A stretch of DNA of 64,000 nt from Escherichia coli (GCF_003790525.1 NZ_CP033634.1); one strand, 5' to 3'. Shown: positions 10,507 to 14,276, counted from the stretch's first letter. Made by a program: numbers and translations. Notes: generated from the letters alone by a model not told the origin.

Positions 10507-10649
10507 CGGATTAAAAATAGATGTAAATAAAAAGCATACTTATTGGCTGGAGTGACGCCTTCGTGCTTCGGTAGTAAAAAACGGGAAATGAAGGTAATAG
10601 TCAGCAACAGGGAATGTGGTATTATCGCGGCGGGTGTCTGAGCCTTTCT

Positions 10650-10740
10650 GGTTCAGGCAAGACGCAGGTACCAGAAATGCGAAGACCCCACTTGTTAATC
10701 CATTAACTCGTGAGGTCTGCATGAAGTACTTGAACACTAC
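10650..10740 (-). ncRNA. Putative SrnC-like antisense RNA (approximate)
   Basis: Position inferred from the Hok/Sok paradigm (antisense across the leader start region); promoter not identified. Confidence 0.3.
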
Positions 10741-10927
10741 TGATTGTAGCCTCTTCCTTGCAGAGAGGTCAAAGTTTATGACGAAATATGCCCTTATCGG
10801 GTTGCTCGCCGTGTGCGCCACGGTGTTGTGTTTTTCACTGATATTCAGGGAACGGTTATGTGAACTGAATATTCACAGGGGAAATACAGTGGTGCAGGTA
10901 ACTCTGGCCTACGAAGCACGGAAGTAA
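10721..10927 (+). CDS. SrnB leader/overlapping reading frame (mok-like) of Hok-family type I toxin locus
   Basis: In-frame upstream ATG at 10721 (MKYLNTTDCSLFLAERSKF) ahead of the toxin ORF, the arrangement recalled for srnB. Confidence 0.5.
   Translation: MKYLNTTDCSLFLAERSKFMTKYALIGLLAVCATVLCFSLIFRERLCELNIHRGNTVVQVTLAYEARK
10778..10927 (+). CDS. srnB: SrnB, Hok/Gef-family membrane toxin (type I toxin-antitoxin)
   Basis: MTKYALIGLLAVCATVLCFSLIFRERLCELNIHRGNTVVQVTLAYEARK, a typical ~50-aa Hok-family peptide; GAGAGG before the ATG at 10778. Confidence 0.8.
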   Translation: MTKYALIGLLAVCATVLCFSLIFRERLCELNIHRGNTVVQVTLAYEARK

Positions 10928-11210
10928 GCTGCCGGGCGGGGACGGAAGTCCCCGCTTTCCGGGAGTGTGAGGTATTTCAGGGGCAGACACCCTACACGTC
11001 AGAAACCGCCGGTCCCGCCCGGGGCCGGCACACAGGTTAAGGCATTTCCTGTTTTTCAGCCATTTCGCAACAAAATTCACACTAAACGACAGTAATCCCC
11101 GTTGATTTGTGCGCCAACACAGATCGTCGTCACAATTCTCAAGTCGCTGATTTCAAAAAACTGTAGTATCCTCTGCGAAACGATCCCTGTTTGAGTATTG
11201 AGGAGGCGGG

Positions 11211-11471
11211 ATGTCGCAGATCGAAAATGCAGTAACTTCCTCACCGAAACGCATTTACAGAAAAGGTAATCCGTTAACCGGAGCCGAGAAACAACGTATA
11301 TCTGTTTCCCGGAAAAAGGGGACACATAAAGCGATTAATGTTTTCATCCAGAGTGAACTCAAAGATGATTTGACACAGCTTTGTAAAGATTCGGGCTTAA
11401 CTCAAAAAGAAATGATAGAGCACTGGATTTTGAAAGAAAAAGCTGCGATGGATAATGCGAATAGAAGGTAA
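11211..11471 (+). CDS. copB: RepA2/CopB replication copy-number repressor (IncFII)
   Basis: MSQIENAVTSS... resembles recalled R100 RepA2; AGGAGG before the ATG; directly upstream of the tap-repA1 unit. Confidence 0.85.
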   Translation: MSQIENAVTSSPKRIYRKGNPLTGAEKQRISVSRKKGTHKAINVFIQSELKDDLTQLCKDSGLTQKEMIEHWILKEKAAMDNANRR

Positions 11472-11569
11472 CTAAGTTACTTTCTTGAACATTTGAATTG
11501 CGGATGCTAGATTACTGATCGTTTAAGGAATTTTGTGGCTGGCCACGCCGTAAGGTGGCAGGGAACTGG

Positions 11570-11670
11570 TTCTGATGTGGATTTACAGGAGCCAGAAAAG
11601 TGAAAACCCCGATAATCTTCAGCAAGTTTGGCGACTAAGAGAAGATTAACGGGGCCATCTAAAAACCGTA
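11570..11670 (-). ncRNA. copA: Putative CopA antisense RNA (approximate)
   Basis: Inferred from the canonical IncFII arrangement between copB and tap; exact ends not determined. Confidence 0.35.
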
Positions 11671-11706
11671 TAGCCAACAATTCAGCTATGCGGGGAGTAT
11701 AGTTAT

Positions 11707-11781
11707 ATGCCCGGAAAAGTTCAAGACTTCTTTCTGTGCTCGCTCCTTCTGCGCATTGTAAGTGCAGGATGGTGTGACTGA
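11707..11781 (+). CDS. tap: Tap/RepA6 leader peptide, translationally coupled to repA1
   Basis: 24-codon [27 protein letters not shown] whose stop overlaps the repA1 GTG start. Confidence 0.7.
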
Positions 11782-12631
11782 TCTTCAACAAACGTATTAC
11801 CGCCAGGTAAAGAACCCGAATCCGGTATTTACACCCCGTGAAGGTGCCGGAACGCTGAAGTTTTGCGAAAAACTGATGGAAAAGGCGGTGGGCTTCACCT
11901 CCCGTTTTGATTTCGCCATTCATGTGGCACACGCCCGTTCGCGTGGTCTGCGCCGGCGCATGCCGCCGGTACTGCGTCGACGGGCCATTGATGCGCTGCT
12001 GCAGGGGCTGTGTTTCCACTATGACCCGCTGGCCAACCGCGTCCAGTGCTCCATCACCACACTGGCCATTGAGTGCGGACTGGCGACGGAGTCTGCTGCC
12101 GGAAAACTCTCTATCACCCGTGCCACCCGCGCCCTGACGTTCCTCGCAGAGCTGGGCCTGATTACCTACCAGACGGAATATGACCCGCTTATCGGGTGCT
12201 ACATTCCGACCGACATCACGTTCACACCGGCACTGTTTGCCGCTCTCGATGTGTCTGAGGTGGCGGTGGCAGCTGCGCGCCGCAGTCGTGTGGAATGGGA
12301 AAACAGACAGCGCAAGAAGCAGGGACTGGATGCACTGGGTATGGATGAACTGATAGCGAAAGCCTGGCGTTTTGTGCGTGAGCGTTTCCGCAGTTACCAG
12401 ACAGAGCTTAAGTCCCGGGGAATAAAGCGTGCCCGTGCGCGTCGTGATGCGGACAGGGAACGTCAGGATATTGTCACCCTGGTGAAACGGCAGCTGACGC
12501 GCGAAATCGCGGAAGGGCGCTTCACTGCTAATCGTGAGGCAGTAAAACGCGAAGTGGAGCGTCGTGTGAAGGAGCGCATGATTCTGTCACGTAACCGTAA
12601 TTACAGCCGGCTGGCCACAGCTTCCCCCTGA
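11774..12631 (+). CDS. repA1: RepA1 replication initiator (RepFIIA)
   Basis: 285 aa from GTG 11774 ([26 protein letters not shown]...), matching recalled R100/R1 RepA1; the listed ORF starts 4 codons earlier. Confidence 0.92.
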
Positions 12632-12649
12632 AAGTGACCTCCTCAGAAT

Positions 12650-12960
12650 AATCCGGCCCGCGCCGGAGGCATTCGCACGCCTGAAGCCTGTCAGCGAACA
12701 AAAAAGCAGCACTGCATACAAAAAACAATCTCATCATCCCCCTTCAGGTGCATCCGGTTCCCCCTGTTTTTGATGCAAAACACCTCTCACAGACGGGGAA
12801 TTTTGCTTGTCCACATTTAACTGCAAGGGACTTCCCCATAAGGTTACAACCGTTCATGCCATAAAGCGCCAGCCGACAGCCTTACAGGGTGCAATGTATC
12901 TTTTAAACACCAGTTTATATCTCCTTTAAACTACCTAATTACATTCATTTAAAAAGAAAA
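12650..12960. other. Putative oriR region of the RepFIIA replicon
   Basis: Directly downstream of repA1; DnaA-box-like TTGTCCACA at 12807-12815 and AT-rich tracts; GC-rich hairpins further downstream at about 13135-13260. Confidence 0.45.
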
Positions 12961-13593
12961 CCTGTTCACTGCCTGTCCTGTGGACAGACAGATAGCACCT
13001 CCCACCGCAAGCGGCGGGCCCCCACCGGAGCCATTTTAGTTACAACACTCAAATACAACCACCAGGAAAACCCCGGTCCAGCGCAGAACCGAAACAACAA
13101 AGCCCCTCCCTCATAACTTAAAAGCGGCCCCGCCCCGGCCCGAAGGGCCGGAACAGAGTCGCTTTTAATTATGAATGTTGTAACTACATCTTCATCGCTG
13201 TCAGTCTTCTCGCTGGAAGTTCTCAGTACACGCTCGTAAGCGGCCCTCACGGCCCGCTAACGCGGAGATACGCCCCGACTTCGGGTAAACCCTCGTCGGG
13301 ACCACTCCGACCGCGCACAGAAGCTCTATCATGGCTGAAAACGGGTATGGTCTGGCAGGGCTGGGGATAGGTAAGGTGAAATCTATCAATCAGTACCGGC
13401 TTACGCCGGGCTTCGGCGGTTTTACTCCTGTGCCATATGTAGCCACATCATGCCGCCTTCCATGCCGCTGGCGCGGCATATACCGGCAGTACAGCTATCT
13501 GTGTTTGATAGTATTTAAAGCGACGTTTTTTTCTTGAACCTGTGTCACTTATAAGAGACAATATACACAGGTTAAGGGAATGAGGGCGGCAAG

Positions 13594-13929
13594 ATGCCTT
13601 ACACGGCGAAACGATATCAGACAGAAAACGGTGAGATCCCATACACCGACTGGATGAAAAAATTAAGACGCAAAGACCAGGCCGCAGCGTTAAAGGTGGA
13701 TTCCAGAATTGCCCGCGCTATGAGCGGAAATTTCGGAGATCATAAATTTGAAAGGGACGGTGTCTGGGAATTACGGATTGATTACGGTCCTGGTTACAGG
13801 GTTTATTATTCAATCGAAGATGGCGAAATAATTCTTCTGCTCATTGGCGGGAATAAAAAAACTCAGACAGCCGATTTAGATAAAGCCGTTAGTTATCTGC
13901 AAGATTTTAAAAAGAGGTCAAAAAAATGA
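13594..13929 (+). CDS. Type II addiction-module toxin (RelE/ParE-superfamily, HigB-like killer protein)
   Basis: 111-aa product; toxin-first order with ATGA overlap to the downstream HTH gene. Confidence 0.7.
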   Translation: MPYTAKRYQTENGEIPYTDWMKKLRRKDQAAALKVDSRIARAMSGNFGDHKFERDGVWELRIDYGPGYRVYYSIEDGEIILLLIGGNKKTQTADLDKAVSYLQDFKKRSKK

Positions 13930-14276
13930 CAGCCACCAAAAATGTGAAGGCGCAGAAAAATGGTTATCCGGCATCCGTTGATCACAATGCCGCCATGATT
14001 GAAGAATTGCGCGCAGATCCTGATTATGCAAACGCTTATCTTGCTAATGCCCTGGAAGAAATAAACGAGCCTGGTGGTTTAGGCGGTTTTCTTGTTGCGC
14101 TACGTCAGGTCATCGAGGCGCGAGGGGGGATTTCCGAAGCTGCCAGGAAATCTGGCCTTGCCCGTCAGAGTATTTACCGCGCATTATCCCCGAACGGGAA
14201 TCCGACCATCACAACACTTGCACAACTTACATCAGTAGCCGGATTACAGTTCACTCTCAGTAAATCCAGCCACTAA
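13926..14276 (+). CDS. Addiction-module antidote (HTH antitoxin) paired with the upstream toxin
   Basis: 116-aa product with a C-terminal helix-turn-helix-like segment (LARQSIYRALSPNGNPTITTLAQL); start overlaps the toxin stop. Confidence 0.7.
   Translation: MTATKNVKAQKNGYPASVDHNAAMIEELRADPDYANAYLANALEEINEPGGLGGFLVALRQVIEARGGISEAARKSGLARQSIYRALSPNGNPTITTLAQLTSVAGLQFTLSKSSH

Follow-up and report, generated by a model that had tools for sequence, protein, structure and literature searches.

A 64,000-nucleotide stretch of Escherichia coli DNA (GCF_003790525.1, NZ_CP033634.1; hereafter the window, meaning the whole stretch at its full length) very probably holds three post-segregational killing modules, intact and independent of one another, in the positions canonical for F-like plasmids. 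Two of them are type I toxin-antitoxin (TA) loci of the hok family, srnB/srnC upstream of an IncFII basic replicon and hok/mok/sok in the leading region, and the third is a toxin-first type II pair just downstream of the replicon, with a HigB-like toxin and an HI1420-type antitoxin. By its sequence the window is a near-identical variant of pGZM7d (NZ_CP129283.1), an IncFII/F-like conjugative plasmid. The direct results behind the three-module interpretation are sequence identity, family membership, RNA folds and a predicted protein fold, and two of the three modules are identical to the founding examples of their family.

An earlier sequence-only reading of the window had proposed these stacked addiction systems and suggested family searches to check them; Pfam, NCBIfam and Rfam confirm all three modules. 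Inactivating mutations, which that reading named as the outcome that would count against it, were sought and none was found: SrnB, Hok and Mok match UniProt references exactly, and the type II toxin keeps its invariant residues. The stacked arrangement is already known and is ordinary for IncF plasmids, on which multiple TA systems are well documented, for example hok/sok beside psiAB and pemIK downstream of repA4 (PMC4707298, PMC4398462).

The type I loci srnB/srnC and hok/mok/sok

SrnB and Hok are distinct paralogues, with 39% identity over 41 residues, and the proposal that the plasmid carries two different Hok-family toxins is borne out by their profile matches. Both exceed the cut-off of 22 bits for Pfam HOK_GEF (PF01848), SrnB with 37.3 bits and Hok with 76.5 bits. 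Hok also scores 126 bits against the NCBIfam model "Hok family toxin" (NF007279, cut-off 73); SrnB falls under the NCBIfam cut-offs, yet it is identical to the SrnB of plasmid F. The gene coordinates that had been read from the sequence are correct, with a single correction: position 10616, taken as the start of the region, is merely the GTG of a longer in-frame open reading frame (ORF), and the functional srnB locus has its limits at the promoter (~10598) and the 3' fold-back element (~10992).

Comparison with srnB/srnC of plasmid F (reference record NC_002483) shows that the 49-aa toxin and the 68-aa SrnB frame are identical, that the position upstream of RepFIC copB and tap is the same, and that the DNA is near-identical from the promoter through the 3' fold-back element. 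Homology to F begins abruptly at ~10603, at the srnB promoter, and extends into copB, whereas the flank upstream of this point is unrelated. The remaining differences are two synonymous changes (10730 and 10732), which lie within the region encoding the 5' tail of SrnC, and a few substitutions 3' of the toxin gene. The SrnB of plasmid F is experimentally toxic and lytic, and SrnC counteracts it, delaying the effect (PMC12390103).

For the second locus the reference is hok/mok/sok (parB) of plasmid R1, from which we detected no difference: Hok and Mok are exact matches, and the window also has the leader structure, the end pairing and the antisense hairpin. At least 1,463 plasmid records contain the 489-bp locus at 99% identity or more. 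Its place is directly after psiA (50025-50744, Pfam PsiA), in a leading region that also carries ssb, psiB and an anti-restriction gene; the sequence-only reading had likewise put hok/sok in the leading region.

Three side observations concern the surroundings and annotation of this locus. The PLSDB gene table lacks psiA. In the RefSeq annotation of pGZM7d, hok is shortened to 41 aa, with its start at an internal GTG (Val12; 51057-51182, record positions 3477-3602), which is an annotation artefact, the full 52-aa ORF being intact and identical to R1 Hok. The leading region also holds three copies of a repeat of ~520-630 bp (42713-43338, 46042-46679 and 51489-52013, at 93-99% identity), the last of them shortly downstream of hok/sok; F-like leading regions have repeated single-strand promoter or ssi elements, and the copies may be of this kind.

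The toxin mRNA leaders of both loci match the Rfam family RF01794 well above its gathering score of 59 (Table 1). This family is named "sok antitoxin", and at both loci it matches the plus strand; it describes the 5' leader of hok-family toxin mRNAs, not an antisense RNA gene. Because the matches lie on the sense strand, annotations derived from the family would put "sok" on the wrong strand.

In the predicted full-length srnB mRNA the first nine bases pair with 10984-10992 (GGGUGUCUG/CAGACACCC), and the predicted hok mRNA is closed at its ends in the same way with a different pair of sequences. That the ends differ between the two mRNAs while each pair stays complementary is compensatory variation between the paralogues. 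In computed folds of srnB mRNA without its 3' end the 5' end refolds to a local hairpin, as has been described for mRNAs of this family, and the truncated hok mRNA refolds at its 5' end as srnB does.

The longer frame srnB' begins upstream of srnB at ATG 10721, behind a Shine-Dalgarno sequence (GAGG, 10712-10715), and the predicted antisense RNA covers its start region. It is the counterpart of mok, being an in-frame N-terminal extension of the toxin gene, unlike mok, which occupies a separate frame. Complementarity of the predicted SrnC to the srnB' start region is complete, and the RNA folds into one long hairpin preceded by a single-stranded 5' tail (-24.8 kcal/mol, z = -4.8). The predicted Sok likewise has a 5' tail and a hairpin (-26.6 kcal/mol, z = -5.3), and the mok start codon lies under it.

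The two loci were presumed in the sequence-only reading to use different antisense RNAs, and the two predicted RNAs do differ: the 5' tails that initiate recognition are unrelated between SrnC and Sok. The same reading suggested that the systems may interact or back each other up, and here the two halves part. Antisense cross-talk between SrnC and Sok was rejected, as the cognate antisense/target duplexes reach ~-130 kcal/mol and the non-cognate combinations only -37.9 and -35.0 kcal/mol, at the background of shuffled sequences (mean ~-34.5, standard deviation 3.9), with a longest perfect non-cognate complement of 7 nt. Since the non-cognate energies stand at shuffled level and the 5' tails are unrelated, cross-regulation is unlikely, and the type I systems are orthogonal, parallel back-ups. 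The targets of the toxins also differ, which speaks against interaction; mutual back-up stands as the accepted view of IncF plasmids.

The toxin-first type II pair and the working of the modules

The type II genes are co-directional with the toxin first, as had been read from the sequence, and the antitoxin start overlaps the toxin stop by 4 bp (ATGA); a Shine-Dalgarno sequence precedes each gene. Each product has at least one family match above the cut-off. The toxin scores 105.4 bits against TIGR02683 (cut-off 62.85) and 31.2 bits against Pfam Gp49 (PF05973, cut-off 23.9), and the antitoxin scores 41.4 bits against PF21716 (cut-off 27). The pair is annotated in RefSeq and is found on about a thousand contigs, and we found no paper in open-access text that characterises this particular pair.

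An AlphaFold model of the toxin, built from 35 homologues (predicted local distance difference test [pLDDT] score of 93), shows the sheet of RelE-type proteins and, at residues 88-109, a long C-terminal helix, a feature described as typical of Gp49-like toxins (PMC9098466). The best Foldseek match is HigB of Streptococcus pneumoniae (template modelling [TM] score 0.81), with HigB1 of Mycobacterium tuberculosis at TM 0.74-0.75, including a ribosome-bound structure, and the RelE-like domain of Cami1 next. ParE structures reach a TM of just 0.38-0.53, and the ParE profile PF05016 gives 19 bits against a cut-off of 23. A ParE-type gyrase poison was rejected on this sub-threshold profile and poor structural match. 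The label "RelE/ParE-like" given in the earlier reading is right for the superfamily and can be refined, the toxin belonging specifically to the Gp49/HigB-like branch. From the model and profiles we predict a HigB-like ribosome-dependent mRNase; Gp49-family toxins are described as ribosome-dependent mRNases encoded in toxin/antitoxin order (PMC11980606). Sequence searches of the PDB with the toxin, single-sequence and profile, gave as their sole match S. pneumoniae HigB (6AF3), a weak one (E = 0.12).

The basic residues that would correspond to the catalytic K54, R61 and R81 of RelE are probably kept. In a profile alignment, R61 and R69 of the toxin fall on the catalytic R68 and R73 of S. pneumoniae HigB, and the stretch K88-K-T-Q91 parallels K92..Q95 of that protein and K95..Q98 of the M. 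tuberculosis toxin, K88 being placed by the K-x-x-Q motif and not by superposition. R69, K88 and Q91 are invariant among the 35 homologues, and the toxin retains every family-invariant residue. With R69, K88 and Q91 kept and R61 and R69 aligned, the toxin looks active by its sequence.

The closest characterised systems in structure are S. pneumoniae HigBA (PDB 6AF3/6AF4) and M. tuberculosis HigB1 (PDB 7NBU, 7AWK), whose toxins are both Gp49-like mRNases that depend on the ribosome. With them the window pair has in common the fold (TM 0.74-0.81), the long C-terminal helix, the toxin-first order, an antitoxin bearing a helix-turn-helix and probably the Arg/Arg/Lys positions. It differs in that sequence identity is just ~20-22%, the window pair being known from sequence and models, and in that its antitoxin is of the HI1420 family, with no significant full-length structural match; compared with the M. 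tuberculosis toxin-antitoxin-chaperone (TAC) system, it also has no chaperone gene.

In the antitoxin model (pLDDT 80.5) a disordered N-terminus precedes two helices and, at the C-terminus, an Xre-type helix-turn-helix; the C-terminal part superposes on ~50-66 residues of the helix-turn-helix domains of SinR, C.AhdI and HipB at 1.6-3.2 Å. Upstream of the pair, an 18-bp palindrome, TGTCACTTATAAGAGACA, occupies 13543-13560, between the weak -35 and -10 elements of the candidate operon promoter. It is kept without change in two cassette variants of 88-90% identity to the window cassette, one of which has an unrelated left flank and sits in a different genomic context, and it is the likely operator of the operon. 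An outer inverted repeat (13530-13545/13565-13580) was also considered as the operator and rejected, its left arm not being conserved in the diverged copies.

At the other end of the cassette, the hairpin listed in Table 1 is probably the operon terminator, and homology to copies of the cassette elsewhere stops at ~14480, ~40 bp past it. Two 16-nt direct repeats (TGTATTTCTGTGTGTC and TGGATTTGTGTGTGTC; 14356-14401) stand just before this closing hairpin.

We hypothesize that the modules work as follows. At each type I locus, a stable toxin mRNA would be made constitutively and kept inert by pairing of its 5' and 3' ends; slow 3' trimming would allow the 5' end to refold locally and open the upstream frame (srnB' or mok), to whose translation that of the toxin would be coupled. 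As long as the cell keeps the plasmid, the opposite strand would supply a short-lived antisense RNA (SrnC or Sok) that covers and blocks the start region. Upon plasmid loss the antisense RNA would decay first, the small membrane toxin would be made and the cell would be killed. At the type II locus, the HigB-like toxin would cut mRNA in the ribosomal A site, a labile antitoxin would neutralise it, and the antitoxin helix-turn-helix would probably repress the operon at the palindrome. The three modules would act in parallel as redundant back-ups without RNA cross-talk. We infer killing, antitoxin instability, ribosome dependence and operator binding from the characterised relatives.

Several points weigh against this interpretation. 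The RNA ends used here are inferred, not mapped. The sok promoter, read by eye, matches the sigma-70 consensus at 7 of 12 positions and the promoter scan gave no call there; we assigned sok because hok/sok of R1 is known and thousands of annotated copies match the locus at 100% identity. The candidate type II promoter, also read by eye, matches at 8 of 12. The antitoxin scores 44.5 bits against TIGR02684, under the cut-off of 53.7, and PDB searches by sequence and by fold returned no significant full-length solved structure for it. M. tuberculosis HigB2 and HigB3, homologues of the TAC toxin HigB1, are not toxic when expressed (PMC9098466), and membership of the family is therefore no guarantee of activity. 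Stabilisation of this plasmid by the three modules is likewise a prediction, and in pEC958, under the conditions of a transposon-directed insertion-site sequencing (TraDIS) experiment, three of the four plasmid TA systems were dispensable for stability (PMC4398462).

That last result would also suit a different reading, in which part of the modules would do little today and persist as conserved passengers that hitch-hike on the replicon and leading-region backbones. The srnB and hok genes are each carried by at least 5,000 plasmid records, within conserved backbone blocks, as such passengers would be. Decay should, on the other hand, bring lesions, and the reading frames, the promoters and the long-range RNA pairings are all intact, with proteins identical to active reference proteins. 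We consider the passenger reading very improbable and retain that of three working post-segregational killing modules.

Table 1. Positions of the modules, their regulatory elements and the replicon between them (window coordinates)
Feature	Position	Strand	Description
srnB mRNA promoter	10598..10625	+	TAGTCA, 16-nt spacer, TG-TATTAT; scan 9/12, extended -10
Predicted full-length srnB mRNA	10632..10998	+	
srnB mRNA 5' leader	10632-10788	+	Rfam RF01794, 93.5 bits, E = 1e-19
srnB tac/fbi elements	5' tac 10632-10640; 3' fbi 10984-10992		Paired in the minimum-energy fold, z = -8.2
Predicted SrnC antisense RNA	10668..10736	-	69 nt, ends approximate
srnB'	10721..10927	+	68 aa; exact match to UniRef "Protein SrnB, SRNB_ECOLI"
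srnC promoter	10743..10772	-	TTGACC, 18-nt spacer, TACAAT; scan 10/12, points into srnB' start region
srnB toxin gene	10778..10927	+	49 aa, Hok/Gef family; translation identical to F plasmid WP_001312851.1
IncFII basic replicon	11211..13479	+	Flanked by modules; Pfam, NCBIfam, Rfam CopA, pGZM7d annotation, Ter pattern search
copB/repA2	11211-11471		Within replicon
CopA RNA	11598-11689	-	Rfam
tap	11707-11781		Within replicon
repA1	11774-12631		Within replicon
oriR region; repA4 region	within 11211..13479		
Ter-like site	13037-13048	-	Ter pattern search
Ter-like site	13175-13186	+	Ter pattern search
Candidate type II operon promoter	13534..13562	+	-35 TTGAAC, 17-nt spacer, -10 GACAAT
Type II toxin	13594..13929	+	111 aa; Gp49/TIGR02683 (HigB-like) branch, RelE/ParE superfamily
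Antitoxin	13926..14276	+	116 aa, HI1420-type
Probable terminator hairpin	14407..14442	+	Perfect 16-bp stem, then CTGTTTTCCC; DNA fold z = -8.2
hok mRNA promoter	50815..50844	+	TGGTCA, 18-nt spacer, TATGAT; scan 9/12
hok mRNA leader	50850-51026	+	Rfam RF01794, 88.9 bits, E = 2e-18
Predicted full-length hok mRNA	50852..51249	+	398 nt
hok tac/fbi elements	5' tac 50852-50857; 3' fbi 51240-51245		GCGCUU/AAGCGC paired in the minimum-energy fold, z = -8.2
sok	50913..51010	-	Predicted Sok RNA ~50978 to 50913
sok promoter	-35 51010-51005; -10 50987-50982	-	TTGCGC; TATCCT; read by eye
mok	50966..51178	+	70 aa, overlaps hok in other frame; exact match to UniRef FLMC2_ECOLX
hok toxin gene	51024..51182	+	52 aa; exact match to UniRef HOK_ECOLX (R1 Hok)

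The slot at the end of the replicon

The type II pair occupies a site that unrelated modules fill in related plasmids. The conserved backbone ends at 13462..13479 as a small inverted repeat (ATGCCGC-TGGC-GCGGCAT), and in all 11 sampled plasmids that share the ori/ter/repA4 block similarity stops at exactly base 13479. A type II TA module follows just downstream of this junction in 10 of the 11, either directly, 65-135 bp past it, or, in the pemIK type, behind tir. As a special structure, the junction hairpin (13462-13479) was rejected, its folding energy not being unusual (z = -1.6).

The junction toxins form six groups without mutual BLASTP similarity at E below 0.001, and the corresponding modules are tir+pemIK, yacAB, two ParE pairs and two Gp49 pairs, that of the window included. 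With junction-specific probes in PLSDB we counted 2,863 records of tir+pemIK (R100 among them), 2,033 of yacAB (among them the IncI1 plasmid ColIb-P9), 256 of the ParE type of pB16EC0481-3, 91 of the Phd/ParE type of pEntH10407, 22 of the HigB-like pair of the window and 19 of the Gp49+HTH type of pCh102. The HigB-like module is a rare occupant of the slot, with its 22 records against 2,863 for pemIK. The pemIK and yacAB types have a further 55-75 bp in common past the junction.

It is conceivable, although we think it unlikely, that the site after 13479, at the end of the ori/ter/repA4 block of IncFII and IncI-type replicons, is a dedicated exchange point for type II TA cassettes. If this were true, it would imply either site-directed insertion or recombination at the terminal hairpin or strong selection for a replicon-wired TA module, and such selection could come from replication coupling of the Kis/Kid kind or from the displacement of incompatible rivals. 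The common breakpoint may be due to a mechanism, to selection for replicon-linked TA modules or simply to the essential replicon ending there. Open-access text yielded no explicit account of a TA exchange slot downstream of repA4, just statements that place pemIK there.

The company that the pair keeps in this slot raises the question of whether it resembles pemIK of R100 and kis/kid (parD) of R1, which are also type II modules directly after the IncFII ori/ter/repA4 block. It differs from both in toxin fold, RelE/HigB in the window as against MazF/PemK, and from pemIK further in that the pemIK antitoxin comes first and that pemIK follows the tir gene. Membership of the PemK/MazF (Kis-Kid) family was rejected for the window pair, which has no PemK/MazF profile match and no BLASTP similarity to PemK; position alone is shared.

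This shared position could mean that the type II pair is mainly a replication-coupled "copy-number rescue" device and not a killer, as Kis/Kid (parD) is at the same position in R1. At low copy number the antitoxin would drop, and the RNase toxin would alter copB/repA expression and delay division. The pair fills the exact slot of tir+pemIK in R100-type plasmids, the R1 parD/kis-kid module lies near the basic replicon with a documented coupling to the copB-repA mRNA (PMC4344636), and the presence of a type II module at the junction in nearly all of the sampled plasmids fits as well. Kid, however, is a MazF-type, ribosome-independent, sequence-specific RNase, whereas the window toxin is HigB-like and predicted to be ribosome dependent; because the toxin classes differ, one cannot assume that copB mRNA would be cut specifically. 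In pV289_I the same cassette is found away from a replicon. Together these considerations make a copy-number role improbable.

A role mainly in conflict with mobile elements, whether by excluding incompatible plasmids or by abortive infection against phages, would account for six modules alternating at one slot, as competition among related plasmids would favour. A Gp49-family HigB within a TAC module does work in abortive infection (PMC11980606), and hok/sok stands in the leading region alongside anti-restriction, ssb and psiB genes. The PADLOC defence models, however, gave no match for the type II pair or its neighbours, and hok/sok and srnB have classically been shown to stabilise plasmids. 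Sequence does not separate these roles, which could coexist with post-segregational killing; a mainly conflict-related function seems to us about as improbable as copy-number rescue. We thus keep to post-segregational killing as the working interpretation of all three modules.

Plasmid context and significance

The 4.1-kb region around the modules is 100% identical to pGZM7d, a conjugative plasmid (MOBF/MPF_F) from chicken liver in China, and the window as a whole is 99.8-100% identical to it except for a rearranged IS26-bounded resistance segment. In this sole substantial departure, at 18889-23500 and bounded by IS26, the resistance region is rearranged or has suffered a deletion; in pGZM7d that region holds a class 1 integron, dfrA17-aadA5 and sul2.

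Besides the two replicon-proximal TA loci, the span 10616-14276 also includes a complete IncFII basic replicon (copB, CopA, tap, repA1 and oriR; Table 1). The two Ter-like sites (core GTTGTAACTA) lie in opposed orientation between oriR and the TA slot, and ~0.1 matches to this pattern would be expected by chance. A second gene of the ProQ/FinO family (14995-15618, plus strand; 207 aa, Pfam ProQ 58 bits) follows ~700 bp downstream of the type II pair and is extra to the canonical finO beside traX. We note the proximity of this gene to the replicon and two TA loci, all under antisense RNA control.

Further from the replicon, coordinates transferred from the pGZM7d annotation place a ParA-type partition pair at ~28727-29652 (minus strand) and, at ~32959-34579 (plus strand), a 366-aa PIN-domain protein followed by an AbiH-family gene interrupted by IS2, which resembles a disrupted defence locus. 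Three plasmid antisense RNAs of the pHK01 type were matched in Rfam, all above their gathering scores and all on the minus strand: AS-pc02 (8210-8393), AS-traI (4168-4244) and AS-pc01 (43474-43576).

The modestly useful parts of this analysis are the HigB-like/HI1420 pair, for which we found no experimental characterisation in the literature, and the lead provided by the replicon-proximal slot, where the swapping of unrelated TA modules at a single base could serve the study of addiction-module exchange. For the plasmid family more broadly, stacked hok/sok, srnB and type II modules help explain how IncF resistance plasmids persist without antibiotic selection, and we predict that curing the plasmid studied here would need the neutralisation of three independent killers.

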